Source: an uncultured Clostridia bacterium
GTDB lineage: Bacteria > Bacillota > Clostridia > Christensenellales > UBA1242
Reading direction: 5' to 3'
Length of the DNA stretch: 64,000 bases
NCBI GenBank assembly: GCA_944332185.1
Contig: CALVJJ010000004.1
Coordinates: 5,768 to 69,767 of the forward strand
Shown: in pieces, positions 12,556 through 46,861 of the stretch
Layout: every line of letters starts with the position of its first letter
Numbering within the stretch: the first letter of the stretch is position 1
Translations under genes and position numbers: made by a program
Notes under the pieces: model-generated
The model's input: only the letters and a program-made list of their open reading frames with translations
Database searches by the model: none
Told to the model about the DNA's origin: nothing

Positions 12556-12584
12556 TTGGAAATTTTTAGAAAATTCTGTATACT
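12556..12584 (+). promoter_or_regulatory. sigma-A promoter of acpP
   Basis: TTGGAA (12556-12561), 17-nt spacer, TATACT (12579-12584), about 20 nt upstream of the acpP RBS GGAGGA. Confidence 0.6.
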
Positions 12585-12605
12585 AAAAATGTTGGAGGAT
12601 ATAGT

Positions 12606-12839: not shown

Positions 12840-12864
12840 AAAGGCATCGATGATGCTAAAAAAA

Positions 12865-12893
12865 GAAAAGACAAATTCGTTTGTCTTTTTTTT
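12865..12893 (+). terminator. rho-independent terminator of acpP
   Basis: AGACAAA-ttcg-TTTGTCT followed by T7-8. Confidence 0.8.
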
Positions 12894-12954
12894 GACATAA
12901 TTCGACAAAATGAGTCATACACATGTTTATAAGCAACAGCTTATAGGAGGGGGT

Positions 12955-13230: not shown

Positions 13231-13262
13231 GGTAGTATTTTTTAAAGTTTCATACCAACAAA

Positions 13263-13290
13263 ATGTCCGTTGTTATACGGATATTTTTTA
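13263..13290 (+). terminator. rho-independent terminator of spoIIID
   Basis: ATGTCCGT-tgttat-ACGGATAT (8 bp including one G.U pair) followed by TTTTTATTGTTTTTTT. Confidence 0.7.
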
Positions 13291-13382: not shown

Positions 13383-13420
13383 TATTTTGTTTGACAAATT
13401 ATGACAAAAAAATATACAAT
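13383..13420 (+). promoter_or_regulatory. promoter of giant gene 1 (homologous to 46638-46674)
   Basis: TTGACA at 13391-13396, then TATACA (16-nt spacer) or TACAAT (18-nt spacer). The string tattttgtttgacaa is identical (15/15) upstream of giant gene 2, and a downstream GACAAAAA repeat is also shared. Confidence 0.6.
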
Positions 13421-13586
13421 TAAGTATGCAAAAAAAATTTTAAAAATATTTTAAAAAATAAGATAAAAATATTGACATTTTTGATGCATGGTTTCAAAGC
13501 AAAAATTAGGGAAAATTTTGCATTTTACGTCAAATAAAAAATTTGCTTTTGAACATACTAAATGAAAGTAAAAATGGAGAACAACA

Positions 13587-13652
13587 ATGGTTAAAAAATT
13601 AACACTTTTGATGTCTATTTTCTTAAGTACAATATGCTTACTTGCTGGATGT
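13587..13652 (+). other. lipoprotein signal peptide and lipobox (LLAG-C22) of giant protein 1
   Basis: A basic n-region (KK), a hydrophobic core, and the lipobox L-A-G-C followed by GNPY. Confidence 0.8.
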
Positions 13653-16600
13653 GGGAATCCATATGCAAGAATGAGTTTGGATATTAGTGAAAAAGAAATT
13701 GTATTGTACATCGATCGTAAGGAAGATGGACAGATTGAGACAACTAGCCAAACCATCGATATTACTGTCAAGGGAGCAAAAAAAGGTGTTAGTACAGACA
13801 TTGTTGTGGAAAACTCTATTGAAAATATTGTAAGTATTACCACGCAAAAACAGGACAACACTACAAGCGTTACTTTTACCCCAAGCAGTCAATATATTGG
13901 AGGTAGTGCTGATCTTGTTGTTCGTACAAAAGAAGGGAATATTAGCGATGTCTTACACGTTACGGTGTTTGATAAAGTAAAAGACATTGCTTTTTCTCCT
14001 ATTTCGTATGCTGTAAGTGTGGGAGGAACAGTCAATTTAGCATCTTATCTTACCTATCAACCAAGTGGGACCAATCAAAAAGATGTTCTGTATTCTATTG
14101 CACAATTTGAGCAAAATCCAGCCTTACACACCTACCTATCTATCAGCGATACTGGAGTCATTAGTGCCGATGAGAATATTCTTAAGGAAGCTCAAGATAT
14201 GCTTTCTTATGATGCTGACAAAGGGCTTTATTACGTTACTGTGCTTGTTACCAGTCAATATGATGAAACCATTACCTGTGAGCAGAATGAGTATATCATC
14301 AATACGATCAAAGCACAAGACGTTGTTGTAAAATCGTTTAGTGACCAAGCAGAAGTGGTATTGACAGGTACACTCCAAGATCTAGATCTAACTTATGGTA
14401 CAGAACAATATACGTTAGAGAATGTGCCAACCTATCAAGTGGTACTAGCAAGCAATATCAATACACAAATGGAATATTTGTATTCTCGAACGATAGAATT
14501 TGTGCTTAGTGAAGAATCAGCAAAGATTGATTCTCTATATAGAATGTCTTTAGTGCAACAGAAATATTTGCAAAATGATGATTCTTTTATTAAGGTGACA
14601 GAACTGGCAAGGAATACCACACCTAATGAAGAATATGAGTATCATACATATCGTATTGACCAAATTAAAAATGGCCATGACACTTTACTATTTAAAATTG
14701 ATTATATAACGTTTGAAGGAATGCTGACCACTTATGTTGCTTTAGATGTGACGGTACAAAATATTGCAACAGATATACAAGCAAGTGTAAAAGGCGAAAG
14801 CATTAGTACCATTCACGACAATCCAAATTTGGCAGGATATCGTACCATCAACGTACTCAATATGCTAGGTGACAATCTTTACCAAACAACGAATGTCAAC
14901 ATTGTCACGAATTATGATAAAACTAATAAAAATATACCTCTGTATTTTAATTTGGTAGCAACAGAAGAAGTTACGAATGATGTTTTGAACTTGGTAAAAA
15001 GTAAAATTTTTATTTGTGACAAAAATGGAAATCAAATTCCACTCGATGGCACAGGATATATCAACAATGGCGACTCTTTCTATATTTTCCACGAATTAAG
15101 TGCCAGCGATGTCCAAACAGTAAGAGACAAATTTGCTTTAGTAGTCAAGACTGTCTATGACCTTAACCCTGTTCAAGGCGAGGAAATGAATTTCCCTCAC
15201 CAAGTAGAACAAACTTTCCCTTTGACCATTCATACCAATGTGAGCAAAGAAGAGATTGAGGTAAGAGAAGAATTGCTTGTCAGCCTTGCATCTTATGAAG
15301 AATTGATATTATTGGACGCAGGAATTGGGGTATATACTTCCAACTTTACCATTACTTCTGATCAAAGAAATACAAAAGTAGAAAAAATTGCAAGTCAAGA
15401 AGGCCTTATAGAGTCTAGAGTATTGGTAGATGACAAAGTCTTATTCTATGTTTATCAAAAAGATGGTAGTGTGGGAGAAAACAACTACATTACTGTCGTA
15501 GCCAATCGGGATATGTACTCTGGACAAACGTATTTGATCTTAAATGATGATGTACATAATTGGCAATTTAGAGTGAAAGTGATTGTGTATGCTCCTCTCA
15601 TGTACGGAGAACTTGAAGAAAAAACGTATTTTGCTAGCTCAATACCAAATGAAGATTATTATAAAGGGCAATGGATTGCTGTTGAGAAGGAAAATATCAA
15701 CATTACCTTTACAGCTGAAGATACCAGAACGTATTCTTCTATTACATCTTTAAAACTTGCTACGACATCTGCAAGAGACAAAAATACCATACAAGAATAT
15801 GTACCAATCGAAGTATACAATTTGGTGAAAGTAGGAGAGCAAATAGAAACCATCAATCTGCTATCCATGGCAACAGTTAGTTATGATCGCTCTTACATGT
15901 ATTATGAAGAAGGTAGAATTTATCCTTTTAACAAACAATATACGAACGAAGAAAAACCATTGGTGCTATCTTTTACAGTAAAAGGGTATGATAGCAATGG
16001 ACAAGAAATTGTCTTAACGTATTCCATTGATATTCTCATTGTCGATATTGTACAATCTTTTGATGTGACAACGACCAAAGATGTTCTTTATGAAAATAGT
16101 AGTCTAGGTGCATTTGATAAAGCATACAGTCAAGATACGATACAACTGATTTGCTATCCACATTTTGTGACGGGTATGACACAAGTATTTGCCTATCAAG
16201 ATGCAGTTGTCCGTTCCTTTGTAGTAGGGGGCACACGTGTAGATATTACCGTATCTGATCTTATGACACTAGATCCAAATACTGGACTATTAACAGTGGA
16301 TTATACAAAGACTGCGTATGGCAAATCAAAAGTAGAGCAATTACTCACTTTATTTGGTTCGGAAAATAATGTCATTCAAAATATTTACCAATCACCAATT
16401 TCTGTGAAAATTGAAGGGTTTATCAAACAAGATTCTTTAGATCAACTCTATGCATCTTCTTATATTACTTTGGATTATGCTACAAAAGTGGATACCATTA
16501 TTGTTTCTGGTATTGATGAACAAGGCGTGTATCTAGAGATGGTAGATGGCAATGCAAGTTCGACCTATGCAAGCAAAACCATTAGTTTTTCTGTGATGCC

Positions 16601-19600
16601 AACTAGTGCACTCAATAAAAATTTGAGAATTGTTGTAGCAGAAGGGACAGATATTATTCGTTTTGCAGATGGGCAAGTGGATCAAAATGGTCGTATTCAA
16701 AGTGTAGGGAATACTTTGACTTTCTATCCTGTCAAAGCAGGACTGATTGAATTAAAAATTGGTGCAGAAGATAGTTTTGAAGCTAGTTCTTCTGTTGTGG
16801 GAAGATATGAACCTAGTACATATATTACCATTCGTGTAAAGGTGGCAGATGGTAGTAAAGCCTATCCATTTGAAATTGCCAATACACAAGACTTTTTCAA
16901 TATTGCCAATGGCTATAAAATGGTTAGTGATGTTTTGACGAATGAGTATCATTATATGCTAGCCAAGAATATTAACCTTGCAGGACAAGTCTTTACACAA
17001 CATAGTTTGTTTGGTGGAGTGTTCAATGGTTCTTTGACTGGTCTTATGCAATATACGGAAGATAGCGCAGTACAACGATCTATCTATGGCTATAAAGTAG
17101 TATCAGATACACAACAAACAAGACCATATTACGGTATGTTTGAACAAGTAGGAATAGATGGAATACTAGATCACATTGTTCTTACACAAACTGATGTACA
17201 ATACAAAACAGAACAAGCAGAAACACTCTATGCTGGTATCTTAGTTGGAAAACTAGATGGTAAAATCACACAAAGTTATGTGAGTGGAAAACTATTCGTT
17301 GAAAACACAACAGATAAAGACACCTTTGTTGGTGGTGTTGTGGGACTACATAGTGGATACTCTGCTGGAGATAGTGTAGATCAATCAACACAAAGTAACA
17401 ATACCAATTATAGTGTATCGATAGCAGTCACAGCACCAAAAGCGTATGTAGGTGGTTGGGCTGGTAGTGTACAAGGACAAGAAGAAAGCACGCACCTTTC
17501 TATGATAGAAGGAGTGAATGGTTTTGCTAGTATTGTAGTCAATCCTGTCAAAGACACAACCTCTATGAGTATGGCTGGTGGTTTAGCTGGGGTGGTACTT
17601 GATGCCACAATCGGTAATGCCATCATACAACCAGTGATCCAAGCTGATGTTGTAGGAGGAATGGCTGGAGCTACTTACAATACCCAAATGGACCATATTA
17701 CGGTAGAACTTTTGGATATGGCAGATACCAATGCTACGTATGGGCTCTACGGGCGTAAAGTGACTGGGGGCATGATAGGATTGATGGACGCTTCTACTAT
17801 AACCTTTAGTTATGTAAGAAGTTATGCAAAAACCAATCAAATAGAACAAAATGGTCAAACCGTATCGTATATAGGCGATCTAGTCCTAGATGTCGATGGA
17901 CAATATCTTGGTGGACTTGTTGGAAGTCATGAAGATGCACAAAACTGGGCAGATCAATACAACTTCACATTGAGCACAAAAAATGTGATCACCAATATTC
18001 AACAATCTTATGTAGATGTATCTATTAGGGTATATGCTACCAACGATCCAAAAGTAGGTAGTCTATTAGGATCTAGCTACTATTATGTAGATGAATCTTA
18101 TACAGAAAATAATACATTCTTGCAATACAACTATGCAAAAATTACCACTGTAGAAGGTGTAGATGTAGACAATTTAACTTTTGTGGGAAATTATAAAACA
18201 ACCAATCAAATGGTAACCATTCACAAAATGAAGATTGTAGACACAAGTGTGGTGGTGGAAACACAACTAACCATTGATGTCATCAGTACAGATGGAAATA
18301 ATACCATTCTTACTGGACAACAAGTCACAGGATATACACTGCCAGATACTTTTGCAGATTCTGTCTATAATGTAGCAAGTGGACTAGTAGAATATTATGG
18401 AGCAAGTGAAAAATTAAATGATGTAAGACAAGTTACGGGTAGATTGACACAAGAACAAGCTTACATTCAAAAAGGTAGTTTGACAGGCGAAGATACAGAT
18501 AGTTGGTATATTCGTATGCAAAATTTGGGCAACAGCGAATTAGGCTATTACCTTTACGAAAAAGATAATACGTATTTTGCAATTCCTAGTGTAGTAACGA
18601 TTCAAGATGCTTTGTATCAAATTACCTTAGATACTAGTTATGAGCCAGTAGATGTACCACTCTATGCTTATGTAGCAGAAGATGTAGAAGGATCAGCACA
18701 ATACGTAGATGGTATGCATACTATGTATCAATACACAAAACAAAATAATACGACCATCGTACTTGATGCAGAAGGACTCATGATGACAGAGATGGGAATC
18801 CCATCATCTATGGATAGTGTTTGGAACACAAATAGTGCATCTAGAGTGCTTGCTTACCGAGAAAATGTATTAGATAGTGATACCCAAACTATTGATTGGA
18901 CTCTTCTTAGTCAATATATCTTCTATCAAAATAACAATGTATCTAGCGGCTATATCTTAAATGATGATTTGCCAGTGTTAGTAGACCAAACCAATCAAAA
19001 ACTTTTGTACAATATTTTGCCAACTTCTTTAATCATACAAGTAAGTGAAACAGTTACAGATATTACAAGTAATCATTACTTTATAAAAGATGATGATACA
19101 GCGATTATGTATTATAATGTCCTTATCGATGGGCCAGAACTAGACCATAATAATGTGTATTATGTGGGATTACAACAGCTAGCCAATCAAACTGTGGCAA
19201 CATACACATTAGATGTCAACCAAGATTTTGGGGGAGATAATCGTGTCAGTGTTATGAGTAGCAATCCTAATGTTGTTCAAGTACAGGAAGGGACCAATGC
19301 TATTGTACTTTGTGGTATAGGACAAAGTGAGATTACGGTAAGATCTTTATTAGATGCTTCAGTGTATGACACCTTTACCATTGTTACGACATACGGTATC
19401 CGTGGAATACATTTGACAGATGCAGAAGGGAATGTTATTACCAATCAAGATACAATGGTGCAATACATTAGTGAATACTATAGTTATTATCATGTAGCAA
19501 CCACCAACCAAGTACAACAAAATGGCATTGTCAGTTATTACCAAACAGAACAAAATTTCCAATTACAAGTGACAATTACAGGGTATACGAATACAGATAC

Positions 19601-22600
19601 ACAAAGTCCTGCTATGGATTTTGGAGGCAAAAAGATCACTGTACAAGATGGTGTCATTCTAGTCGATGGACAAAATCAAAACACTTTCCTTTTATCTAAT
19701 GTCGACCAAATCGCTATCAAAGGTATGCAAATTGGACAATTTAGTTTTAGCATAACACCTTTGATCTTAGTAAATGGAAAATCATATACCCTAACAGGTG
19801 TGACACAATCTTATGCAATAGATATTGCCAATCAAGCAACTTCTATTGTGTTTGATAAAGGTGCTACAAGTACGACATTTGCCATTGCGGGAAGTGGTAG
19901 CAGTAGTGAACTAGGTGTGTACTTGACTACCTATCATGAAGCTGATGAATTGAGCATGAATGTATATGATTATCAAGGAAATGTCTTAAATAGCGAACCT
20001 ATTGCCTTATCTACTTTCTCGAGTGGAACGTATCGATACTTAAAAATCAACCAAATCAACCAAGATGTACTCTCTACAGATAGTAGCAGTGAGATAGAAA
20101 AATATCATCAATTACAACTGTTATTCGATCAAACAGCATATTTAAGTAATATTTTAAGTACGTTACCAGAAGATAGTCTTAATCATCAACAATATGTGTT
20201 GGAGTTTGTGTGTGAAAGTAATACCGATCTTATTGGCACTTTCCATGTCAATATGCAAGCATTGAGTGTGAGTTCGATTGCCAATTACTATTACCCATCT
20301 GCACAACAAAAAGATCAGCAATACTACCCACAAGAAAATGCGAGTACCTATCTTGTACCGGGTAGAATTGGTATGTTTAAAACCAATGTTTTCCCAATGC
20401 TTAATAATGTCGATTACTTTACAATGACAGTGGATCCAGCATACCGACAATATATTCGATTGACACAATATTATGCCAATATGAATACAGATGGCACAGC
20501 CATTGCGAATTACACAGCTTATGAAAATACAGCCTATTTGCCAGAATTTGCTGGAATTCAATTAGAAAAATTGAGCCAAAAGACTTATTCAGCAAATAGT
20601 TTTGCCTATAGTTATACCGGTGATTATTATATCGGTGTGACAACTAGTTCAGACTGTCCAAGTGGAGGACAAGTTGTCTTTACCTTGACAGGCTACCGAT
20701 ATACAGCAGATGGCAGTGTGGAAATCGTGACTGATGCGACAACAACCATTTCCTTAGATGTTGTGGCTTTGCCAAAAGTTGATCTTACCATTGGAGGAGA
20801 AAAAGAAAGTATTCTTGCTAATGGTTATGAAAAACAAATGAATGTATCTATTAGTAATTATGATCTAATCAATGATGGACCAGTAGAATTCGTGATTGAA
20901 GTAGAAGAAGGTGGTATTTGGACCAGTGAAGGTGTTCAATCCAAATATATGGTAACAGAATCCTATCTTTTCTCTATTCTTGATGGAAAAGTAGGAGATA
21001 GAGTACGTGTAACTGCCCATATTGAAAAGATGTTGAATGGTGTGATGGAAGAATCGAATAGTTCTGTCATATTCAATGTAGTGGCATACGAAATTACCAA
21101 TATCTTTATTCAATCTTATCCTAGTGATCAAATCGAATTACTCAATGGGACACAAAATTATTTACTGGGAGATTTTGCTTATAGAGGAGAAACCAATCCA
21201 ACCATTGTATCGAATTTACGACTTTTAAGATATACTTGGAACGGTATTTTATCTTCTAGTACAGGATCTAGAAACAATCCATTCCAATATTACGATAATG
21301 GATACGTAAGTGTGGCAACACAACAAGAAAATTATTTGTATAATGGATCTATTCGTTTCATGAGATCTAATACCAATAATTATCTATTTGTGGAGACAGC
21401 AAAAGTTTCTACGCCATTGCAATTCCGTATCGTATTATCTTACTATTATGTCAATGGTGTTCCTACCTTGTATACCAATCAAGTAGGAGTAGATCAATAC
21501 TATCAACTTTATTATGATTTTACCATTACGATCAAAGACAATAGCAGTGCAGACAAGCCATTCCCAATCTATGAGGAAGAAGACTTCTATGCTTTGGAAG
21601 GTGTCACAGAAGGACATTATATCTTAATGAACAATTTGGAACTAACAGGACATACTCCTTTTGCTCTACAAGTAGATTCCTTGGATGGTAATAATCATAA
21701 AATTACGTTAAATGGATTTGATCTTAACACCTATCAATCTGGATCTACAGCCAACGTAGGATTATTCCAAAGTATTGATAGTGAAACGGTACTGAAAAAT
21801 TTGATTATTGATATTCACCCATTGATGACCAATCTAACAACCATACAACAAGTTTTAGGAAAAGTAAGTACCACACCAGAACAATATGAGAATGCTTTAA
21901 GTCAAGTAAAATTGAATTTTAGTGGAATTCAAACAGTAAATTTTGGTTTGGTTGCAGTTACCAACAATGGAACCATTACCAATGTAAATGTTGTGAATAT
22001 TAGTGAAGAAACAGACAAAGAATATTTGTTTGTCTATACATCGCAAGATTACTTAAGTGGGGTACGTACTAATGCAAGTGTGGCTGGATTAGTCTATTCC
22101 AATGGTTCTAATGGTGTGATTACCAATAGTTTTGTGGGTATGAACTATAGTACCAAAAATGATGCAGACACATCGATTCAAAATACCATTACTGTCAATA
22201 TGGCTCAATATGGAGAAATTACGAATGATACTTCTAGCACTGCCACAGGATCTGATACAAATGGTCAAATTGTAGAAGAAAAACAAAAAATTCGTCCTTT
22301 TGTATTAGCTGGTGGAAAAGAGTTAAGTGGATTGGTAATAGACAACTTGGGTACCATAGCCAGTACGTATGTATATGGGGTCGGGCTTTTGAATTTGGCA
22401 AGCTTATTTAATGAAGTGTATACAGCGGGGGTAGTACTCTATAATAGAGGTACAGTATTTGCAAGTTTTGTAGAAGGTATGTCTACTCTAACTAGTACCA
22501 CTGAAACTATATCTACTTTACCTAGTACCAATATATATCGTGCTAATAAAGACTATATTATAGAAAGTACTGGTATGTCTGGTGGATTCGTATATCAAAA

Positions 22601-25600
22601 TGTAGGAACAATATATGATTGTTATGCCAATATTGCAGTGAGTACCAATTCTGGCAGAACAGGGGATTTTGTATTCCAAAACCAAGGAAGTATTCGTAAT
22701 TGTTATACGACAGCAATCAGTCTAGAAAATAGTAAAGGCTCTGGTGCTCCAGCAGATGAAATTAGAACCAATCATGGAGTATTCACAGGTATTGGAACAG
22801 ATCTAACCATCAATAATACGGGTACGTATTCAGGGTGTTATTATTTACTATTAAAGAACGAAACAGAAAGTAAAATCGAAGATGCATTTGGCATCAAAGG
22901 ATATGTAACTGGTCAGGATAGCCAACAAACAAAATCAGATTATTTGAATATTGATTCTTACTATGGGTATTCGATGGGAACAAATGGTAGTGATTATATC
23001 TGGGTCATGGATACGACAGGACCAAAACTGGCTTATAGTTATACTGCCACTACTTCCATGCGATATATGAATGTATCGACTAGCAGTTCTGAAAATGGCT
23101 GGAATTATATCTATTTTGCAGCATATTCTTATGGAACGACGAACAATCCTATTTTAATTACTTCTGGAGAAGAACTAGTCACTTCAGTCATCAATTATGC
23201 AAATACCATTTATGTCTTACCTGATGGATCAGTGAGTGGTCAACAACCAACAGATGAAAGTGCTACCTTAACACCAATCTTTGGATACGATAATGGTGGA
23301 GCATCAAAAGAAGAAGAGAGTGCTAGTTTTAGTGCTAGATCTATTCGATTAGTAAGATCTATTACGATATCTAGTACGCTAATCAATCAAACAAGAATCA
23401 ACAATCGATATTTAAGAGAAGTCATTTTTGCAGGAATACTAGATGGTAATGGAATGACTGTAACCATTGACAACCTAAACGATGAATTACATCAAGTCTC
23501 TAAAGAAAATTTTGGTCTATTTAGTCAAATTGGAGTATTTAGTAGTTCCAATAAAGCCATTGTCAAAAATATTACGTTTGACCTAAAAGGCAATGTTACT
23601 TCTTCTAATGCACACAATGTTGGTATGCTTGCAGGATCTATTTATGATGCTACTATTATTGATGTGACAGTTGTGGGTTCTGAAGGAGTCACCATTAGTG
23701 GACTCAATGCAGTCGGTGGGATTGCAGGGGTAATTGGTGGAGATAGTCAATTACTCAATGTAAGAAGCAGTATATCTGTTAATAGTGTGTATGATACAAG
23801 AATTACAGACAAAGAAAATTCTAGTGATCCAGATTATGATTTTGCTTATCATAGATATGTAGAAGGCGATGGAAAGATAGATAGTACCAATGTCTCTTAT
23901 GCAGGAGGTATTGCAGGGATTCTAGATATTGATACCTTAAAACAACTACTTACTTATAAAGATGGAAAGCTTGCAGGTGTGGATTTGAATTTGGATTCTA
24001 CTGATCGAACCAGTATGTTTATTACTGAACAAAGTAGTGCCAAGATCATGAATTTGACAGTCTATGGATATGTCCAGATTGTAGCAGAGCATGCTGGTGG
24101 ACTCTTTGGATATGTCGGTACCACTTCCCATGTAAAACATAGTACATTTGAAATTGATGTAGAGACCACACAAAACATTATCGGTCACAATTTTGCCGGT
24201 GGTATTGTAGCAGAAAATAGAGGATATCTAGAAGAAGTCTATGTAGATGCCAATGCTGAAGATAAAGAAGAATTAGATGCTACTTTACCTTCTGTATCTT
24301 ATGGAACGACGTTATTTGTCGATACCAACAATCAATACCCAGTAGCTATTGGAGGTATTGCAGGATACAATCAAGGTGCAATCTATAATAGTTACTCAAA
24401 AGCCAATGTTGTCAACAGTACGGCCTTCGTGGCAGGTGGTGTCATTGGTATTGCTGAAGGTGTGAACTATTTGTCTCACGTATATACCACAGCCTATGCC
24501 TATGCTCGTAAAGTTATTGGTGGTGTGATTGGATTTGTGAGAGAAAATGGTAGCATACAACCAACCTTAATTATGGATTATGTCACAGGGTATAATGTCT
24601 GGGATAATGTAACAGACAAGACAACCAACAATACGACATATACACTTCTTTATAATATGTATAAAGAGGGGTACAAGGATATTGAGACAGGAAAATATAG
24701 TAATTTTGAAGTTCGTATGCCACAGATTGGCAATCAAGAATATGTTGTATATGATATAGAAGGTGGTACCACAACAAGAACACTTGCTTCTTCTACCTAT
24801 ATTGGAAGTTTACTTGGTAGAGTGGGAAGAGTAAGCGAAGATAATGTAGTGCCAAGTGTAACGGCAAGTAGTATGAAAGATATCTTATATACAAGGACCA
24901 ATTTGCCAGCGACTGAAAGCACAACAGGAACTACCATACAAAGTGAAGAAAATGTTTTAGATACAGATGAGATAACGACTGAGATATTTACTAGTAATTA
25001 TGCTACAGATGAGATGACTATTTATACATCTACTAGTAATTATGCTTATGTCAATTCTATGCCAAATGAAAAGAGTAAAGTTAGTAACAATACAGATAAA
25101 ATCTATTTTGAAGATGTATATGGTATTCAAAAACAATATGAAACTTTAAAAAATGGATTGGAATTTTCTTTATCTACTGAAAATGGTCAATATATCAAGG
25201 ATGAAGATGTAAAGAATTATCTTGTGCTCAACCAAATGGCAAGTACTTTATGGGTATTTGATAGCATAAGTGATGGCAGTAGAATCAATTCAAAATACTG
25301 GTCTTATGATAATGTTACAAAATTACCGATCATGATAGAAGGTGTCTATAGTTCTAATAATATTATTGAAAATAATACACAATACAAATCTTTACTATTA
25401 CAAGCAGCGATCAATAACCAGACTGCGAACAAATTCTATTTTGTAACAAAAGATATTACCATCAGTGATTTTGTAGAAAATGCCTATGATAGGCGTCCTA
25501 TTGTTTTCCAAGGACAGTTATCTGGACTATTAAACGAAAATAATAATAATAAGAATACAATTACGTTGTCCAAAGATGCTACATTCAATCTTATACAAAA

Positions 25601-28600
25601 TGCAACCATTGAGAATTTGAAATTTGTAGTTGATCTTACTCAAGAAAAAGAATCTCTAGCATTGACAGAATATACTAATGCACATATCGCTCATGGATTA
25701 TTTGCAGATTATGTATATAATTCTGCTATTCGTAATGTCGATATTGAAATTAAGTTACCAAGTTCTTTCTCTATTGGTGGACAACAAGATAAGGTACATG
25801 AATACTTAGGACTAGTATTTGGGTATGTGGTAGATAGTACGATCGAAAACGTGAATATTACTATTACGAATGCATCAACTATTACTGGTGTGCAATATAG
25901 CAACTTTGGGGTATTTGCTGGTGGAATTCGTAGTTCAAAAGTCAATACTATTACTGTCACAAGCAATGTCCTAACCATTGCACCAGATGAATATATTGAT
26001 TCGAGTGCATCAGGGTACTCCTATGGTACAGATGTTACGGTGGGTAGTTTTGCGGGACTAGTTTATACACAAAGTAGTCTTAACAACATACAAGAAAATG
26101 TATCTTTACAAGTACAGCCTATTGTGAATAATAGTTCTTATCGATACTACTATATTGGATCAGTGGCAAAGGTGCAAAATACCACGATGTCTAATTACAG
26201 TGTTAGTGGAGACATAACGGTGACTTCTGCTACTTGGATTACAGAAGGGTATGTGTATTATGGTAGAGTAGCAGGATACTCCAGTGATACGAGTATCAAT
26301 TTCACTGTATCTACAACAGCAAATCTTACTTACAATCCACAAGGAAGTGAAGATACCCTTTATCTAGGTGGTGTGCTTGGATATGCTTCTGCTACAACAC
26401 TTCGCATGGATAAAGAAGATGAACTTGTAGACAATATAAAACAAAATATTGAAGTCTTAGAATCTACTAAATCTATAATGATCTATGCTGGTGGAATCAC
26501 AGGCTATAGTGTCAAAGGTAATATTCAAAATATTGGTGTGACTTCTGTACTAACGCTTGCTTCTACTAGTAGTGTTTATGCTGGTGGTATCACAGGCTAT
26601 AGCAAAGGTGTTAGTATGCAAAACATCTTATTTGATGGTACGATAACGGTAGGTCAAGAAGGTGTATCTAGTACTCAAGCATACCTTGGTGGATTGAGTG
26701 CCATTGAAGAAAATAATACTGTGACATCATTCGTCGTGATGGGTACATTACAATATATTGGGACAGGCAATACCTATCGTATGGCAGGACTTGCTGTGAC
26801 GATGAATGGAGAAGCAAGTGCAGCAAAATATTCCAATGGTATGGTATCTCCAATATTTAATACCTTTAATACTTTATGTAAAGATGGTAGTATAGAGCCA
26901 TTGTATATTAGTTGTACTGCTACCAATAGAGTAGACAATACCGTAAAATATCCATACGAACTCTATCTATATGAAGGTATGGAAGACTTAGGAGATATCT
27001 CTCAGTCACATACTGATCACAATGGTATGCGATATGTGGATTTTATCAATACTTATTACAAATCAACGATTGCAACCACAACTACTACTACGACTAATCC
27101 TTCTTACATTGGAAAAACCTTCACAGTGACCATGGATCAAGAAGGCACTAGATACAATCCAACAGTCATTACAACGAACATGACGATTGGTAAAGATAGC
27201 AATAAGTATTATCTTGTTGATGGAGCTTATGCTATTACACTACTAGAGACATTCAATGGTGTGCTAATTGGTAAGAATACACAAGATAATGTCGCATATA
27301 GTTCTTCAAGCAATCTAACCAATAATGGAATTATTGCCAATATTCGTTTTGATGCTAGCATGATATTCACAAGTAATACTGGAGTGCTCTTTAATATTTT
27401 AGTTGAGCAAAATGAAGTAGATGGAAAAGGCCAATCTTCTAAAGGGATCCTTACGAATGAGAATACAGGATACATTATCGATAGTGGTGTGGTCTTGGAC
27501 CAAGTCACAACGGAAGGTCGTGATAAGATTGCATTACTTGTTTATACAAATAGTGGAACAATTATGAATTCTTATGTTGTCGGTAATGCTTTCCCAAGTA
27601 ATGCTTATGCTCTTGTAGCTAATAATACAGGTAGGGTACTGAACTCGTATTATGCTGGTAATGTGAATAGCATTATTAGTGGAGGGAATTACTCCAATAT
27701 CAAAGTTAATGCTGATGCTATGGGAGTGCCAAGTGGTCGTACAGAGAATAATATTCAATATTTGAGTACCGAGAATCTCTTAAATTTAGGAAATAGCAAT
27801 CACAACTTTGATACAAAGACATCATTAGCATACAATAATGGTTATCCTTATATATTAGGTGGTATGCGCTATGCTAATACTAGTTATAATAATGGAGAAT
27901 ATGTAATATATAATCAAGCTGACTGGATCTTAACCAATCATGATCTTACAGGAAAAGAAACACTACAAAAAGTAACAATCACTCTGCAACAAAATATTAC
28001 CTTGTCTGTAGACATTCAACCAATGAATTTGAAAGGATCGGATACAGCAACGATTACTGTTGATGGTAATGAAAAAACCATCACTATCAACTCTACTATG
28101 ACAGCTAGTAATGGAACTTGGGGATTGTTTGGATTAGTACAAAATGCAACAATTACAGACCTTACCGTTCAATGGAATAAAGACAGAACTTTAAGCAGTA
28201 ATAATGGTATTACATACGCTGGAGGACTAATTGGTCAAGCTGAAAAAGTTACTTTAGAGAATGTAACAGTGTCGAATTTGACTATCAATGATGCTTCTAC
28301 ACAGTACTTGGGAGGAGTCATTGGATATGGTACGAACATCACGATTGACAAACCTGTTAGTGTAAACAATATTACATTAACACAAAATAACACAGCAAGT
28401 TCACTAGGTGCATTTGCTGGTGAAATTACCAATTTAGATGGAGAAGAATCCATTACGATCACCAATCCAACCTTGAAAGGTAACAATATTGTTGGAGGTG
28501 CTATTGGAACGATCACTGGTGATGTATCACAAGTCATTCAAGTGACAGATGGTGGAAGTATACAAGGAGGAGTGTCTTCTATCGTAGGTGGGGTCTTCGG

Positions 28601-30890
28601 TGTTTGGAATAATGCACAAGGAGAAGCACAATTAGAAAATGAAGTAGAGGTCACAACATCTTCTATGTACTATGTAGGTGGAATTGTTGGACAATTAAAA
28701 GCAAATAATTATACGATCCATAATTGGACATTTACCAATTCTATTAGTAGTACTGATAAAGCTGATCTTGGTGGACTTATTGGATATGCAGAAGGAAATA
28801 TTGTAGTCAAAACTGTATCAGTATCCGATACACAATACACATATACTACCAAAGGAAAACTAGGTGGTCTGATTGGATATGTAAAAGGAGATGTAGACAT
28901 TCGTGAAAAGCTCAATCTATCTATGCAATTTGATAGTGTGTCAGATAGCCTTGGTGGACTAGTAGGTGTGATTGATGGTGATCTAACCATTGGTCTGGGC
29001 TTGAACAGTTGTGATATTACGATCCAGAATGACCTTTCTTCTACCAACATGGTGGGAGGCCTAGTAGCCAAAAGCAATGGACTATCTATTCTAAGCAACA
29101 ATACTACTATTACTTTACCATCTTCTATCAAAACAAGTGGGGATTATGCTGGAGGACTAGTTGGGGAAATTGATGGTGCTGTACGTATTACACGATCAGC
29201 ATTTACGTTACCAACATTAAGTACGATAGAGAGTAAAATATATGCTGGTGGTTTAATCGGGTATTTGAATTCATCAACGGCTACGATCAATAGTATAATT
29301 TATAGTGTGAGTGCCAATCTAACCATTCACACCACACAAGATGATGCCTATGTTGGTGGTTTGGTTGGATATGTTGGAGCAGCTGATACAACTTTAAGTC
29401 TAGGGGTTAATCAGCTAGTTGTGAGTATTGCCAATCGAAAAGCACAATATGCTGGTGGTTTAATTGGTTTTATTGAAAGAGATGTGATAATAGAAGCAGT
29501 TAATTTAACAATTGATCAACTTTTAGGTGTCAATGCTGGTGGGTTGATTGGTTCTTCCAAAAATAAGATTACCATTACAGACAATGTCACGGTGACCATG
29601 TTAGGTAAGTATACCAATTATAAATATTTTGGTGGACTAGTGGGCTATAATGGGGAATCAACAACCATCAATGTAGATGCAGTGTGTACAGTTACTGGAC
29701 TGTCCTTAACATCAAATACATCTTGTGGGGCTGCTGGATTTGGATATGTTGGGGTACTTACAAATAGAGGAACTATCAAGATTACCAATAGCTCTATGCA
29801 AACATCAGCTATCTATAATGGACTTGTTGTAGGTAGTACACCAGATAGTCTTGGTGGATATATGATAATTGAAAATAGTAAACTGCAGATGGCACAAAAA
29901 ACTGATTACGTAGGACTTATTGCTGGTAAATGCAAACAGATAAGTGCAACAGCAATCATCGAATTAGTGAATTCTAATCTAATTGTGCCAAATATGGATC
30001 CTTCCACTGGATTTAATTTTGAAAAACAAAGAACCAATCAAGAGCTTGTTAATCTTATTAAAAATTCTAAAGGGTTTACTAGTTTTGGAAATTTGTATAT
30101 TCAAAATACGAGAAATGAGTGGTTTAATGCTTCGAATAGATCATCTGCATGGTATGGAAAATATAGTTTTGATACAAAACTATATACGGATCAGTTCTCA
30201 CAATTCCCATATTCTATGGCAAGTGGATTAGATGATTCTATTGTTGTTGCTACTACAATGAATTTCAATACCGTAACCGATCCAAATACAGTCACTATTC
30301 GTGATTATTTCTCAAAATTTAATATTACAGAGAAAGATTCTAACTTTAATGTCTTCAATTCTTACGAATATAGATTTGGATTAGTAACAGGACAAGGACC
30401 TATCAATACTTCCCATATCACACTTATGAATTCTAAAATACAAAATGAAGAAGAAGAGAAAGTGTTGATTGGACAGTTTATGAAAATGATGTTTGCCTAT
30501 ATTGAATCAGGCTTTAGTGCTAGACAAAAATGGCTGGTAATGGATTACCATTACTATCTAGATGAGCAACAATTAACAACCACTTCTTATTGCTTTATTG
30601 ATGATATTGAATCTACCAAGCGAGATCATATTAGCAGAATTGAAATCATTTATGGATATAGTTCTGTAGCAATGGGAGATAATGAAAAACCAAATGATGG
30701 TGATACACATACATTTGGAAATGTTACTACGATAGATGATTCCTACATTCCAGAAGGAGGAAATTTTGTAGATAATGTATTTAAATTTCAGTATAGAATA
30801 AATTCATATGTAAGATATGGATTCTTAACTCAATTCTGTATCAATAGTAATGGAGATGATAGATTTACGTTATCGCCAGTTCAGTCATAA
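13587..30890 (+). CDS. giant surface lipoprotein, 5,767 aa: Big_2-like/beta-sandwich stalk plus about six GLUG-motif repeat modules
   Basis: Uninterrupted 17,304-nt ORF in AT-rich DNA. It starts with the lipoprotein signal MVKKLTLLMSIFLSTICLLAG|C. Big_2-like segments include YQPSGTNQKDVLYSI and SSNPNVVQVQEGTNAIVLCGIGQSEITV. I counted about 30 strict GG-x-x-G (GLUG-type) cores by eye, plus degenerate copies. RBS GGAGA. Confidence 0.95.
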   Translation: MVKKLTLLMSIFLSTICLLAGCGNPYARMSLDISEKEIVLYIDRKEDGQIETTSQTIDITVKGAKKGVSTDIVVENSIENIVSITTQKQDNTTSVTFTPSSQYIGGSADLVVRTKEGNISDVLHVTVFDKVKDIAFSPISYAVSVGGTVNLASYLTYQPSGTNQKDVLYSIAQFEQNPALHTYLSISDTGVISADENILKEAQDMLSYDADKGLYYVTVLVTSQYDETITCEQNEYIINTIKAQDVVVKSFSDQAEVVLTGTLQDLDLTYGTEQYTLENVPTYQVVLASNINTQMEYLYSRTIEFVLSEESAKIDSLYRMSLVQQKYLQNDDSFIKVTELARNTTPNEEYEYHTYRIDQIKNGHDTLLFKIDYITFEGMLTTYVALDVTVQNIATDIQASVKGESISTIHDNPNLAGYRTINVLNMLGDNLYQTTNVNIVTNYDKTNKNIPLYFNLVATEEVTNDVLNLVKSKIFICDKNGNQIPLDGTGYINNGDSFYIFHELSASDVQTVRDKFALVVKTVYDLNPVQGEEMNFPHQVEQTFPLTIHTNVSKEEIEVREELLVSLASYEELILLDAGIGVYTSNFTITSDQRNTKVEKIASQEGLIESRVLVDDKVLFYVYQKDGSVGENNYITVVANRDMYSGQTYLILNDDVHNWQFRVKVIVYAPLMYGELEEKTYFASSIPNEDYYKGQWIAVEKENINITFTAEDTRTYSSITSLKLATTSARDKNTIQEYVPIEVYNLVKVGEQIETINLLSMATVSYDRSYMYYEEGRIYPFNKQYTNEEKPLVLSFTVKGYDSNGQEIVLTYSIDILIVDIVQSFDVTTTKDVLYENSSLGAFDKAYSQDTIQLICYPHFVTGMTQVFAYQDAVVRSFVVGGTRVDITVSDLMTLDPNTGLLTVDYTKTAYGKSKVEQLLTLFGSENNVIQNIYQSPISVKIEGFIKQDSLDQLYASSYITLDYATKVDTIIVSGIDEQGVYLEMVDGNASSTYASKTISFSVMPTSALNKNLRIVVAEGTDIIRFADGQVDQNGRIQSVGNTLTFYPVKAGLIELKIGAEDSFEASSSVVGRYEPSTYITIRVKVADGSKAYPFEIANTQDFFNIANGYKMVSDVLTNEYHYMLAKNINLAGQVFTQHSLFGGVFNGSLTGLMQYTEDSAVQRSIYGYKVVSDTQQTRPYYGMFEQVGIDGILDHIVLTQTDVQYKTEQAETLYAGILVGKLDGKITQSYVSGKLFVENTTDKDTFVGGVVGLHSGYSAGDSVDQSTQSNNTNYSVSIAVTAPKAYVGGWAGSVQGQEESTHLSMIEGVNGFASIVVNPVKDTTSMSMAGGLAGVVLDATIGNAIIQPVIQADVVGGMAGATYNTQMDHITVELLDMADTNATYGLYGRKVTGGMIGLMDASTITFSYVRSYAKTNQIEQNGQTVSYIGDLVLDVDGQYLGGLVGSHEDAQNWADQYNFTLSTKNVITNIQQSYVDVSIRVYATNDPKVGSLLGSSYYYVDESYTENNTFLQYNYAKITTVEGVDVDNLTFVGNYKTTNQMVTIHKMKIVDTSVVVETQLTIDVISTDGNNTILTGQQVTGYTLPDTFADSVYNVASGLVEYYGASEKLNDVRQVTGRLTQEQAYIQKGSLTGEDTDSWYIRMQNLGNSELGYYLYEKDNTYFAIPSVVTIQDALYQITLDTSYEPVDVPLYAYVAEDVEGSAQYVDGMHTMYQYTKQNNTTIVLDAEGLMMTEMGIPSSMDSVWNTNSASRVLAYRENVLDSDTQTIDWTLLSQYIFYQNNNVSSGYILNDDLPVLVDQTNQKLLYNILPTSLIIQVSETVTDITSNHYFIKDDDTAIMYYNVLIDGPELDHNNVYYVGLQQLANQTVATYTLDVNQDFGGDNRVSVMSSNPNVVQVQEGTNAIVLCGIGQSEITVRSLLDASVYDTFTIVTTYGIRGIHLTDAEGNVITNQDTMVQYISEYYSYYHVATTNQVQQNGIVSYYQTEQNFQLQVTITGYTNTDTQSPAMDFGGKKITVQDGVILVDGQNQNTFLLSNVDQIAIKGMQIGQFSFSITPLILVNGKSYTLTGVTQSYAIDIANQATSIVFDKGATSTTFAIAGSGSSSELGVYLTTYHEADELSMNVYDYQGNVLNSEPIALSTFSSGTYRYLKINQINQDVLSTDSSSEIEKYHQLQLLFDQTAYLSNILSTLPEDSLNHQQYVLEFVCESNTDLIGTFHVNMQALSVSSIANYYYPSAQQKDQQYYPQENASTYLVPGRIGMFKTNVFPMLNNVDYFTMTVDPAYRQYIRLTQYYANMNTDGTAIANYTAYENTAYLPEFAGIQLEKLSQKTYSANSFAYSYTGDYYIGVTTSSDCPSGGQVVFTLTGYRYTADGSVEIVTDATTTISLDVVALPKVDLTIGGEKESILANGYEKQMNVSISNYDLINDGPVEFVIEVEEGGIWTSEGVQSKYMVTESYLFSILDGKVGDRVRVTAHIEKMLNGVMEESNSSVIFNVVAYEITNIFIQSYPSDQIELLNGTQNYLLGDFAYRGETNPTIVSNLRLLRYTWNGILSSSTGSRNNPFQYYDNGYVSVATQQENYLYNGSIRFMRSNTNNYLFVETAKVSTPLQFRIVLSYYYVNGVPTLYTNQVGVDQYYQLYYDFTITIKDNSSADKPFPIYEEEDFYALEGVTEGHYILMNNLELTGHTPFALQVDSLDGNNHKITLNGFDLNTYQSGSTANVGLFQSIDSETVLKNLIIDIHPLMTNLTTIQQVLGKVSTTPEQYENALSQVKLNFSGIQTVNFGLVAVTNNGTITNVNVVNISEETDKEYLFVYTSQDYLSGVRTNASVAGLVYSNGSNGVITNSFVGMNYSTKNDADTSIQNTITVNMAQYGEITNDTSSTATGSDTNGQIVEEKQKIRPFVLAGGKELSGLVIDNLGTIASTYVYGVGLLNLASLFNEVYTAGVVLYNRGTVFASFVEGMSTLTSTTETISTLPSTNIYRANKDYIIESTGMSGGFVYQNVGTIYDCYANIAVSTNSGRTGDFVFQNQGSIRNCYTTAISLENSKGSGAPADEIRTNHGVFTGIGTDLTINNTGTYSGCYYLLLKNETESKIEDAFGIKGYVTGQDSQQTKSDYLNIDSYYGYSMGTNGSDYIWVMDTTGPKLAYSYTATTSMRYMNVSTSSSENGWNYIYFAAYSYGTTNNPILITSGEELVTSVINYANTIYVLPDGSVSGQQPTDESATLTPIFGYDNGGASKEEESASFSARSIRLVRSITISSTLINQTRINNRYLREVIFAGILDGNGMTVTIDNLNDELHQVSKENFGLFSQIGVFSSSNKAIVKNITFDLKGNVTSSNAHNVGMLAGSIYDATIIDVTVVGSEGVTISGLNAVGGIAGVIGGDSQLLNVRSSISVNSVYDTRITDKENSSDPDYDFAYHRYVEGDGKIDSTNVSYAGGIAGILDIDTLKQLLTYKDGKLAGVDLNLDSTDRTSMFITEQSSAKIMNLTVYGYVQIVAEHAGGLFGYVGTTSHVKHSTFEIDVETTQNIIGHNFAGGIVAENRGYLEEVYVDANAEDKEELDATLPSVSYGTTLFVDTNNQYPVAIGGIAGYNQGAIYNSYSKANVVNSTAFVAGGVIGIAEGVNYLSHVYTTAYAYARKVIGGVIGFVRENGSIQPTLIMDYVTGYNVWDNVTDKTTNNTTYTLLYNMYKEGYKDIETGKYSNFEVRMPQIGNQEYVVYDIEGGTTTRTLASSTYIGSLLGRVGRVSEDNVVPSVTASSMKDILYTRTNLPATESTTGTTIQSEENVLDTDEITTEIFTSNYATDEMTIYTSTSNYAYVNSMPNEKSKVSNNTDKIYFEDVYGIQKQYETLKNGLEFSLSTENGQYIKDEDVKNYLVLNQMASTLWVFDSISDGSRINSKYWSYDNVTKLPIMIEGVYSSNNIIENNTQYKSLLLQAAINNQTANKFYFVTKDITISDFVENAYDRRPIVFQGQLSGLLNENNNNKNTITLSKDATFNLIQNATIENLKFVVDLTQEKESLALTEYTNAHIAHGLFADYVYNSAIRNVDIEIKLPSSFSIGGQQDKVHEYLGLVFGYVVDSTIENVNITITNASTITGVQYSNFGVFAGGIRSSKVNTITVTSNVLTIAPDEYIDSSASGYSYGTDVTVGSFAGLVYTQSSLNNIQENVSLQVQPIVNNSSYRYYYIGSVAKVQNTTMSNYSVSGDITVTSATWITEGYVYYGRVAGYSSDTSINFTVSTTANLTYNPQGSEDTLYLGGVLGYASATTLRMDKEDELVDNIKQNIEVLESTKSIMIYAGGITGYSVKGNIQNIGVTSVLTLASTSSVYAGGITGYSKGVSMQNILFDGTITVGQEGVSSTQAYLGGLSAIEENNTVTSFVVMGTLQYIGTGNTYRMAGLAVTMNGEASAAKYSNGMVSPIFNTFNTLCKDGSIEPLYISCTATNRVDNTVKYPYELYLYEGMEDLGDISQSHTDHNGMRYVDFINTYYKSTIATTTTTTTNPSYIGKTFTVTMDQEGTRYNPTVITTNMTIGKDSNKYYLVDGAYAITLLETFNGVLIGKNTQDNVAYSSSSNLTNNGIIANIRFDASMIFTSNTGVLFNILVEQNEVDGKGQSSKGILTNENTGYIIDSGVVLDQVTTEGRDKIALLVYTNSGTIMNSYVVGNAFPSNAYALVANNTGRVLNSYYAGNVNSIISGGNYSNIKVNADAMGVPSGRTENNIQYLSTENLLNLGNSNHNFDTKTSLAYNNGYPYILGGMRYANTSYNNGEYVIYNQADWILTNHDLTGKETLQKVTITLQQNITLSVDIQPMNLKGSDTATITVDGNEKTITINSTMTASNGTWGLFGLVQNATITDLTVQWNKDRTLSSNNGITYAGGLIGQAEKVTLENVTVSNLTINDASTQYLGGVIGYGTNITIDKPVSVNNITLTQNNTASSLGAFAGEITNLDGEESITITNPTLKGNNIVGGAIGTITGDVSQVIQVTDGGSIQGGVSSIVGGVFGVWNNAQGEAQLENEVEVTTSSMYYVGGIVGQLKANNYTIHNWTFTNSISSTDKADLGGLIGYAEGNIVVKTVSVSDTQYTYTTKGKLGGLIGYVKGDVDIREKLNLSMQFDSVSDSLGGLVGVIDGDLTIGLGLNSCDITIQNDLSSTNMVGGLVAKSNGLSILSNNTTITLPSSIKTSGDYAGGLVGEIDGAVRITRSAFTLPTLSTIESKIYAGGLIGYLNSSTATINSIIYSVSANLTIHTTQDDAYVGGLVGYVGAADTTLSLGVNQLVVSIANRKAQYAGGLIGFIERDVIIEAVNLTIDQLLGVNAGGLIGSSKNKITITDNVTVTMLGKYTNYKYFGGLVGYNGESTTINVDAVCTVTGLSLTSNTSCGAAGFGYVGVLTNRGTIKITNSSMQTSAIYNGLVVGSTPDSLGGYMIIENSKLQMAQKTDYVGLIAGKCKQISATAIIELVNSNLIVPNMDPSTGFNFEKQRTNQELVNLIKNSKGFTSFGNLYIQNTRNEWFNASNRSSAWYGKYSFDTKLYTDQFSQFPYSMASGLDDSIVVATTMNFNTVTDPNTVTIRDYFSKFNITEKDSNFNVFNSYEYRFGLVTGQGPINTSHITLMNSKIQNEEEEKVLIGQFMKMMFAYIESGFSARQKWLVMDYHYYLDEQQLTTTSYCFIDDIESTKRDHISRIEIIYGYSSVAMGDNEKPNDGDTHTFGNVTTIDDSYIPEGGNFVDNVFKFQYRINSYVRYGFLTQFCINSNGDDRFTLSPVQS
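24963..25046 (+). repeat. in-frame 42-bp tandem duplication inside giant gene 1
   Basis: Units 24963-25004 and 25005-25046 share the first 11 nt (acagatgagat) and the last 15 nt (actagtaattatgct). They encode TDEITTEIFTSNYA and TDEMTIYTSTSNYA. Confidence 0.8.
26484..26602 (+). repeat. near-identical 26-nt direct repeat, 93 bp apart, in giant gene 1
   Basis: tatgctggtggaatcacaggctatag (26484-) versus tatgctggtggtatcacaggctatag (26577-), 25/26 identical and in frame. Both encode YAGGITGYS. Confidence 0.8.
28200..29950 (+). repeat. dense array of consecutive GLUG-type repeats (protein level) in giant gene 1
   Basis: Successive cores run YAGGLIGQ, YLGGVIGY, IVGGAIGT, IVGGVFGV, YVGGIVGQ, DLGGLIGY, KLGGLIGY, SLGGLVGV, MVGGLVAK, YAGGLVGE, YAGGLIGY, YVGGLVGY, YAGGLIGF, NAGGLIGS, YFGGLVGY. 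They are spaced roughly 20-35 aa apart, then continue as degenerate copies. Confidence 0.8.
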
Positions 30891-30925
30891 AAAAAATAGA
30901 AGGCCTTATGGTCTTCTATTTTTTA
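30891..30925 (+). terminator. rho-independent terminator of giant gene 1
   Basis: AATAGAAGGCC-ttat-GGTCTTCTATT (10 bp, one G.U pair) followed by TTTTTAT, directly after the TAA stop. Confidence 0.85.
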
Positions 30926-46786: not shown

Positions 46787-46861
46787 ATGGAAAAATTCAA
46801 ATCTAAAATTAGTCTTATTTCTATGATGTTTTTATGGGCAATCCTTCTGCTTGCAGGGTGT
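46787..46861 (+). other. lipoprotein signal peptide and lipobox (LLAG-C25) of giant protein 2
   Basis: A basic n-region (KFKSK), a hydrophobic core, and LLAGC followed by GNPY, identical to the giant 1 cleavage region. Confidence 0.8.

Follow-up and report, generated by a model that had tools for sequence, protein, structure and literature searches.

Bacterial proteins longer than 5,000 aa fall mainly into two classes, and giant surface proteins are one of them (PMC11573180). Giant surface proteins that combine Ig-like stalks with beta-solenoids are already well known, and GLUG modules are widespread. The Giant1-5 proteins of Apilactobacillus kunkeei have 3,000-8,000 aa and are predicted to form fibres of 0.1-0.2 µm, with a role in attachment inferred; the beta-solenoid tips of Giant1-4, like those of SRRP, are proposed to mediate binding (PMC12863079). 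The Giants carry a Sec/SPI signal and a solenoid at the N-terminal, distal end, together with long arrays of imperfect repeats that are largely alpha-helical, and basic C-terminal SH3b-like wall-binding domains (DUF5776). Threonine is over-represented in fibrillar adhesins (PMC9210967). In surveys of these proteins, about half of the candidates had no recognisable anchor, and the lipobox is not among the anchors named (PMC8286594, PMC9210967). Moreover, sortase-less Firmicute proteins show an unexplained C-terminal peak of adhesive domains (PMC8286594).

In the cryo-EM structure of S. pneumoniae IgA1P, residues 781-1070 of the N-terminal domain make up a compact, non-catalytic beta-helix, which is in contact with the substrate and acts as its gate (PMC7695701); this domain seems to correspond to the GLUG/Peptidase_M26_N region. 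The TpsA/FHA-type and autotransporter adhesins, such as HMW1, HxuA, and Fap2, are long beta-helical extracellular filaments exported by type V secretion. Here we compare with these systems the product of a giant gene, p1, from a 64,000-nt stretch of bacterial DNA (the window).

The gene and its surroundings

The p1 gene is a single uninterrupted frame at 13587..30890 on the forward strand, which covers 17.3 kb and comprises an ATG start, 5,767 codons, and a stop codon. At 35% GC, the probability of an equally long stop-free run arising by chance is ~1e-185. Searches for exact copies of the flanking tyrS and degV products located it in many assemblies from several projects. Four of these assemblies, which stem from at least three projects, contain the complete gene, with products of 5,767, 5,766, 5,768, and 5,767 aa, and in six further partial contigs it stays open up to the contig end. 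The strain variants share 98.7-99.9% identity, with all indels in-frame. In particular, one variant has six differences in the first 6,048 nt; in another, the last 9.6 kb diverge by 1.1% and contain one in-frame indel. Over the same last 9.6 kb, the strain comparison yielded 56 synonymous and 45 non-synonymous differences (pN/pS 0.23), which indicates purifying selection. There are essentially no internal DNA repeats in the gene, so assembly collapse of repeats is not an issue. The first-pass annotation had described one intact 17.3-kb ORF; given the four complete copies and exclusively in-frame indels, this is confirmed, and the gene is real, not an assembly artefact.

The codon usage and GC content of the gene are those of the housekeeping genes in the window (RSCU r=0.96), and recent horizontal transfer was rejected on these grounds. 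A phage origin was likewise rejected, as the codon usage is native and PHROGs yielded no match. The gene context fits an anaerobic, spore-forming, low-GC Firmicute. Its habitat, going only by the assembly names, would be animal or human gut metagenomes.

We found candidate transcription signals on both sides of the gene, all on the forward strand. An intrinsic-terminator-like hairpin (13260..13287) lies at the 3' end of the upstream spoIIID. It is followed by a sigma-70-type promoter-like site, TTGACA-18-TACAAT, identified by consensus match only (11/12 positions, 13391..13420), and by a putative ribosome-binding site GGAG at 13576..13579, 7 nt 5' of the ATG. A second terminator-like hairpin (30891..30924) is situated directly 3' of the stop codon. 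The promoter-like site and the flanking hairpins suggest that the gene is monocistronic and forms its own transcription unit. The next gene is the convergent degV.

A second giant lipoprotein gene, p2, starts 16 kb downstream of p1 and runs off the window (46787..64000, forward strand); the first-pass annotation is silent on this larger paralogue. Its product, for which the source contig gives a length of 6,427 aa, carries the lipobox LLLAG|C, has ~25% identity to p1, and is collinear with it only up to aa ~3650. The last ~675 aa of p2 fall outside the window; the Logan contig ERR4096561_61026 contains the entire gene. Both genes lie amid housekeeping genes, namely nrdDG, tyrS, leuS, pheST (with a T-box leader), efp, degV, and rubrerythrin. 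We saw no secretion, glycosylation, or immunity partner conserved beside the family members.

Two sporulation genes, spoIIID and that of a spoIIQ-like M23 peptidase, are close by, and the p1 gene is directly downstream of them. Moreover, the order M23 peptidase - ACP - SpoIIID - giant lipoprotein is kept at L007, a locus from a third, more distant species. The product could then be a sporulation-related structure, either a spore appendage or a tether between the mother cell and the forespore. We consider this highly improbable: the terminator after spoIIID and the separate sigma-70-like promoter argue against co-regulation, p2 and the homologous locus L008 adjoin pheST and rpoBC instead, and p1 matches no spore-coat or exosporium family. 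The L007 gene appears split. We rejected this as a sign of smaller genes, as the scaffold is of low coverage and the splits are a scaffold N-gap and one in-frame TAA.

Predicted membrane anchor and architecture of the product

According to a sequence script, mature p1 has ~630 kDa and a pI of 4.5; threonine is its commonest residue (10.3%). The N-terminus reads MVKKLTLLMSIFLSTICLLAG|C and continues with CGNPY. It has the features of a lipoprotein signal peptide (aa 1-22, 13587..13652, forward strand): the positively charged MVKK, the hydrophobic LTLLMSIFLSTICLL, and a lipobox LLAG|C, whose L-A-G-C at aa 19-22 fits the pattern [LVI][ASTVI][GAS]C within the first ~35 residues. A lipobox is present at every family N-terminus seen, that is, in p1, p2 (LLAGC), the orthologue P0002 (LLAGC), L007 (LVGC), and L008 (LFGC). 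Cys22 would be the lipid-modified residue.

As claimed in the first-pass annotation, the lipobox is the sole targeting signal. Among 19-residue windows, only the signal peptide exceeds a Kyte-Doolittle mean of 1.8, so that there is no second hydrophobic segment, including at the C-terminus, and LPxTG does not occur anywhere in p1. The claimed lack of choline- and SLH-type wall-binding repeats also stood in the Pfam searches: we found no SLH, choline-binding, LysM, or SH3b domains (tiles at E<=0.01, spacers and tip at E<=1). The C-terminus is acidic and hence not wall-binding-like.

Pfam was run on p1 as seven overlapping 1,000-aa tiles, and the sole match was the GLUG motif (PF07581, Glug). 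In the tile of aa 4801-5767, it scored 35.3 bits, above the gathering score of 20.5; at aa 3201-4200, the score of 18.6 bits was just below. The Glug gathering score is also passed in p2 and L008. The literal string 'GLUG' is absent from p1, which has 28 cores of the form GG[LIVMFA][LIVMFATS]G. A home-made coil HMM built from the GGxxG cores found ~35 clustered coils of ~25-31 aa each. Every cluster is preceded by a cap, (P)[YF]xI...Y/F.L...[IL].L...F.G.hxG, and the caps start at aa ~1092, 2657, 3186, 3924, 4522, and 4770. The same cap opens generic GLUG proteins, e.g. P0037. The six caps with clustered coils bear out the earlier count of about six modules with GG-x-x-G cores, and the alternation of these modules with beta-sandwich segments, which had also been proposed, holds as an architecture.

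All segments of this architecture are given on the forward strand. The lipobox is followed by a membrane-proximal stalk (aa 23-1090, 13653..16856), a putative beta-sandwich array. Next comes GLUG-type beta-helix module 1 (aa 1091-1540, 16857..18206), in which the cap AYPFEI... precedes GGxxG coils; its equivalent in L008 matches Pfam Glug. A second stalk (aa 1541-2655, 18207..21551), predicted to be a beta-sandwich array by modelling and Foldseek, leads to module 2 (aa 2656-3100, 21552..22886), which lies in the conserved core and was delimited by its cap, coils, and AF2 model. After a connector rich in tyrosine, serine, and threonine (aa 3101-3185, 22887..23141) there is module 3 (aa 3186-3690, 23142..24656), which includes the weaker Glug match and is the most conserved part of the family.

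The fast-evolving distal part begins in the spacer at aa 3691-3923 (24657..25355). It continues with module 4 (aa 3924-4400, 25356..26786), recognised by its coils and cap, a spacer with a poly-Thr stretch (aa 4401-4520, 26787..27146), and the short Asn-rich module 5 (aa 4521-4720), which together with a connector up to aa 4769 occupies 27147..27893. Module 6 (aa 4770-5465, 27894..29981) has ~20 regular coils of ~30 aa and, with the above-threshold Pfam match, is the clearest GLUG array in p1. The protein ends in an acidic (pI 4.8) orphan tip domain without a family (aa 5466-5767, 29982..30887).

Two regions of p1 were modelled, aa 2150-3200 and 4751-5767, of which ~1,000 aa have moderate confidence. 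The AF2 model of aa 2150-3200, built from six family sequences, is all-beta, with a mean pLDDT of 54 and blocks at 70-91, and contains beta-sandwich domains with pLDDT 65-82. In Foldseek searches, the first half of this model (aa ~2230-2500) matched tandem Ig/FN3 arrays at E ~4e-4, among them RbmA, the Ig-like domains of PrgB, the MG domains of complement C3, and the N-terminal Ig domain of PAD4; the Ig-like matches also include S-layer domains (Sap and Haloferax SLG). The second half is a beta-solenoid-like run of strands of 3-4 residues, with pLDDT up to ~90. A single-sequence model of aa 4751-5767 was poor (mean pLDDT 39.8) and yielded no fold for the C-terminal domain. Module 6 nevertheless appeared there as periodic short strands with pLDDT 50-77. 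Its Foldseek matches, headed by HMW1, HxuA, and Fap2 and also including the IgA1 protease 6xja and pectin lyase, were all non-significant and nearly all beta-solenoids, and provide a weak hint only.

Thus, the beta-sandwich nature of aa ~2230-2500 is shown by the model. For the N-terminal stalk it is supported by a homologue, as the L008 stalk has a Big_2 match (35.1 bits, gathering score 22.8) at the equivalent of p1 aa ~712-813, and the rest of the proposed beta-sandwich segments are presumably of the same kind. With hhalign, no internal repeats were detected among the stalk segments. The beta-helix geometry of the modules is suggested by sequence periodicity, Pfam homology, and the non-significant fold matches.

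Possible catalytic function of the modules

Pectate lyases, GH28 enzymes, and tailspikes are all right-handed beta-helices. Hence, one may ask if the beta-helix modules or the orphan segments degrade polysaccharide or protein, which would make p1 a tethered degradative machine serving nutrient capture. The pectin lyase among the fold neighbours of module 6 could be taken in this sense, and so could the co-occurrence of GLUG modules elsewhere with subtilases, chitobiase-like domains, and M26 protease domains. In addition, about half of the p1 residues (the N-terminal stalk, the second stalk, the spacers, and the tip) match no family, which leaves room for a new catalytic fold.

The searches, however, argue against such a machine. 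The NCBIfam and PHROGs tiles gave no matches, phmmer of the whole p1 against PDB sequences, as well as PDB searches with profiles of the N-terminal stalk, the second stalk, and modules 2-3, yielded nothing or noise, and the spacers and tip, when compared with Pfam at E<=1, produced only noise. No catalytic family was found in any of these, nor was a recognised adhesive domain found in the Pfam tiles, or a toxin family in the tiles and in the spacers and tip at E<=1. HExxH is absent from p1, no tile matches Peptidase_M26_C, and Peptidase_M26_N (PF05342) has no match in p1; in p2, the latter reaches a sub-threshold 21.0 bits (gathering score 27.7). In the one solved case, that of the IgA1 protease, the corresponding beta-helix is a non-catalytic gate (PMC7695701). 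We therefore regard the degradative role as improbable.

The first-pass annotation had stated that the protein has no catalytic, toxin, or wall-anchor module. None is indeed found in Pfam, NCBIfam, PHROGs, or PDB, but this is absence of evidence in a protein about half of which is unmatched. The missing HEXXH motif, to which it attached importance in view of the Zmp/IgA1 metalloproteases, is confirmed, and the link to these enzymes concerns only their non-catalytic N-terminal beta-helix. Similar to them (PF07581, PF05342), p1 has the same coil motif and the same cap-plus-coil layout. Unlike them, it has no M26 catalytic domain, HExxH, G5 domain, or LPxTG, contains six modules rather than one, is anchored by a lipobox, and is about three times as large. 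Apart from family members, the only proteins retrieved with a profile of modules 2-3 were generic GLUG/Peptidase_M26_N proteins of many phyla. Their architectures are diverse but invariably extracellular, with T9SS tails, TPS domains, subtilases, or Big domains.

The family and its conservation gradient

One family member is P0002, a collinear full-length orthologue of 5,941 aa with the lipobox LLAGCGNPY and an overall identity of 49%. The JGI metagenome locus L008 encodes a 3,288-aa lipoprotein that matches p1 aa 1-3667 only, and P0034, labelled 'Firmicutes bacterium' by NCBI, is a partial member. Module 3 is conserved in p2, L007, L008, and P0034. Scans of the GTDB species-representative genomes with an N-terminal pattern and then with a pattern for modules 2-3 revealed no family member. 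A word-indexed homologue search with aa 1-1100 at 1e-5 returned nothing and missed p1 itself; this index evidently misses the family. The family is thus small, unannotated, and so far metagenomic.

Conservation is distributed unevenly along the protein. Identity between p1 and P0002 is 0.55-0.76 in aa 2600-3700 (0.57-0.76 in module 3) and 0.2-0.45 in aa 4100-5767. Among four family members, the first 100 aa and modules 2-3 are kept best. The strains of p1 show the same trend: counts of non-synonymous and synonymous differences are 6/21 in aa 2575-3749 versus 39/35 in aa 3750-5767 (Fisher p=0.007), and the rate of evolution is about fourfold higher in the distal 2,000 aa than in the core. In L008, which consists of the core only, these distal 2,000 aa are entirely absent. 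Therefore, the membrane-proximal core (aa 1-3700) is constrained; the distal third is fast-evolving and lineage-specific.

The tip is the most isolated part. In an exhaustive phmmer search of 1.84 billion representatives, the C-terminal 318 aa matched three proteins, self included, namely P0002 (38% identity, E 2e-29) and P0003; the latter, a repetitive eukaryote-like protein, was rejected as a spurious relative. A nearly orphan tip at the end of a variable distal part could be a novel toxin domain carried on a long stalk, as in CDI and polymorphic-toxin systems, and the combination of beta-helix and long filament resembles the TpsA/CdiA passengers, with HMW1 and HxuA among the fold matches. 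Yet the tip of P0002 is homologous, not swapped as the tips of polymorphic toxins are, p1 matches no toxin family, and no dedicated secretion partner was seen. An immunity-gene candidate is also absent, as the stop codon is immediately followed by the terminator and then by the convergent degV. Such a contact-dependent effector is very hard to reconcile with these observations, and we give it little credence.

The gradient also bears on a structural role, in which p1 and p2 would surround the cell with a coat, sheath, or spacer layer of fibrils that substitutes for an S-layer or capsule, and would provide a barrier or hold cells together in chains or aggregates instead of acting as specific adhesins. 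The faster evolution of the distal part is typical of outward interaction surfaces, not of lattice contacts, the L008 protein does without the whole of this part, and p1 contains neither SLH nor any other domain for self-assembly or wall binding. On the other hand, two paralogues occupying ~36.6 kb amid housekeeping genes, with a native chromosomal signature, would suit an envelope component, as would the uniformly acidic composition of p1, the S-layer domains among the Ig-like fold matches, and the failure to find a specific adhesive domain. The sigma-70-like promoter also suggests vegetative expression. All in all, an envelope component seems rather unlikely, although less so than a degradative machine.

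Proposed role and relation to known systems

We propose that p1 is probably an N-terminally lipid-anchored, fibrillar adhesin-like surface fibre that serves for attachment. Adhesion, a fibril, and cell contact were among the options of the first-pass annotation and remain the best reading, as the architecture, the anchor, and the conservation gradient all fit. What counts against an adhesin is that no known adhesive domain was detected, that roughly half of the residues match no family, and that the stalk is devoid of near-identical repeats.

In the proposed mechanism, p1 would be exported by Sec and lipid-modified at Cys22, so that its N-terminus is held in the outer leaflet of the cytoplasmic membrane. 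The chain would form an extended non-repetitive fibre, with two arrays of roughly ten beta-sandwich domains as the stalk and six right-handed GLUG-type beta-helix modules interspersed along it. Assuming ~4 nm for each beta-sandwich and ~0.48 nm for each coil, we estimate the length of the extended fibre at ~100-150 nm, which would take it through the wall and beyond, and would expose it at the surface for binding. The proximal core of aa 1-3700, ending in modules 2-3, would be the family scaffold and probably its conserved binding unit. The distal 2,000 aa (modules 4-6 and the orphan tip), which evolve faster and are paralogue-specific, could provide ligand specificity. In this way, p1 would let the cell adhere to surfaces of host, dietary, or microbial origin; nothing points to a mechanism other than attachment.

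Similar to the Gram-positive fibrillar adhesins (Monzon & Bateman), such as L. reuteri SRRP and S. pneumoniae PfbA, p1 is very long, Thr-rich, and acidic, would combine a putative Ig-like stalk with predicted beta-solenoid regions, and has its anchor at one end and a variable region at the opposite one. By the features used to define these proteins (PMC8286594/PMC9210967), p1 has the length and a surface anchor, and lacks a recognised adhesive domain. With regard to the stalk, tandem Ig-like domains are modelled at aa ~2230-2500 and a Big_2 domain is matched in a homologue, with no sequence repetition between segments. The polarity of p1 is reversed, with a predicted N-terminal lipid anchor instead of a C-terminal LPxTG. 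Its stalk domains are all unlike each other, whereas classical stalks consist of near-identical repeats, and its beta-solenoids are interspersed, not only at the tip. Unlike SRRP, p1 has no serine-rich repeats, and an accessory Sec signal was not seen.

The A. kunkeei Giants resemble p1 and p2 in that several giant paralogues are encoded next to or near each other in a Firmicute genome of small size (presumed for p1 and p2), in combining beta-solenoids with arrays of beta-sheet domains, and in the predicted long fibre with a putative role in attachment. By contrast with the Giants, p1 carries a lipobox, is free of repeats, and ends in an acidic orphan domain, and no sequence relation was detected. 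Like the TpsA/FHA-type and autotransporter adhesins, p1 would be a long beta-helical filament, but it has no TPS or beta-barrel domain, and its host is a monoderm-type Firmicute.

Compared to these systems, what is new is the lipid anchor with reversed polarity at such a size, the non-repetitive alternation of stalk and beta-helix, and an essentially orphan family that is represented twice, by paralogues, in a single genome. A bolder reading, which we put forward tentatively and with less confidence than attachment as such, is that p1 represents an undescribed family of lipid-anchored megafibres of reverse polarity, restricted to a small clade of uncultured gut Bacillota, in which modules 2-3 form a new ligand-binding or catalytic unit, and the distal modules and the tip perform receptor recognition. 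If this is true, Gram-positive cells would display adhesive fibres of ~100 nm independently of sortase, and lipid tethering would be able to carry fibres of ~3,300-6,400 aa in Firmicutes. The polarity would be flipped, with the variable and probably ligand-binding end at the C-terminus, and this would explain why adhesive domains peak at the C-terminus of sortase-less Firmicute proteins (PMC8286594). As p1 and p2 together take up ~36.6 kb of what we guess to be a small genome, they are likely central to the organism's dealings with its surroundings.

A second giant lipoprotein gene

The window contains a second giant lipoprotein gene, p2, which starts at 46787 on the forward strand and continues past the window end at 64000. 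In the source contig, its product is called with a length of 6,427 aa, starting at an upstream ATG (46742). This gene was absent from the first-pass annotation's finding on p1, the 5,767-aa lipoprotein with GLUG-type modules. The p2 protein has the lipobox LLLAG|C and is ∼25% identical to its paralogue p1, the collinearity being limited to p1 up to aa ∼3650. It contains Glug matches, and also a Peptidase_M26_N match below the threshold.

Within the 17.3-kb p1 gene, the sole tandem repeat (24962-25046, forward strand) is comprised of two 42-nt copies that are 83% identical, and encodes a Thr/Asp/Glu-rich stretch in spacer 3, the segment where the fast-evolving distal part of p1 begins. A strain indel falls in the same interval (aa 3750-3999).

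Gene neighborhood and homologous loci

Directly upstream of p1 are genes encoding a spoIIQ-like M23 peptidase and a small acyl carrier protein, followed by spoIIID (11829-13230, forward strand); a terminator separates them from p1. The same order, ending with the giant gene, is found at locus L007 of another species (ENA ERZ28574364), where the p1 homologue (3768-12424) is syntenic with p1, downstream of spoIIID. A scaffold gap of 10 N and a single in-frame TAA (11696-11698) led gene callers to split this homologue; the stop may be genuine, making a pseudogene, or an assembly error.

Locus L008 of a JGI metagenome collection (contig LGOV01004972.1, 2669-12535) encodes a "core-only" family member of 3,288 aa, which has the lipobox LLFG|C, matches aa 1-3667 of p1 and ends with a Pro/Asp-rich tail. 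This gene is adjoined by rpoB/rpoC and preceded by a separate 779-aa GLUG ORF.

Other features of the window

For three forward-strand ORFs of 230-466 aa (280-1680, 34743-35435, and 35552-36493), Pfam gave no family at E<=0.001. In the source contig, the ORF at 280-1680 is called with a length of 594 aa and has a faint DUF4097 match.

A tRNA-Glu gene (anticodon CTC; 9692-9766, reverse strand) lies immediately upstream of tyrS. T-box leaders upstream of tyrS occur in many Firmicutes; none was detected at this position in the window. A T-box leader (107.6 bits; 42695-42906, forward strand) precedes pheS/pheT and supports a Firmicute origin.
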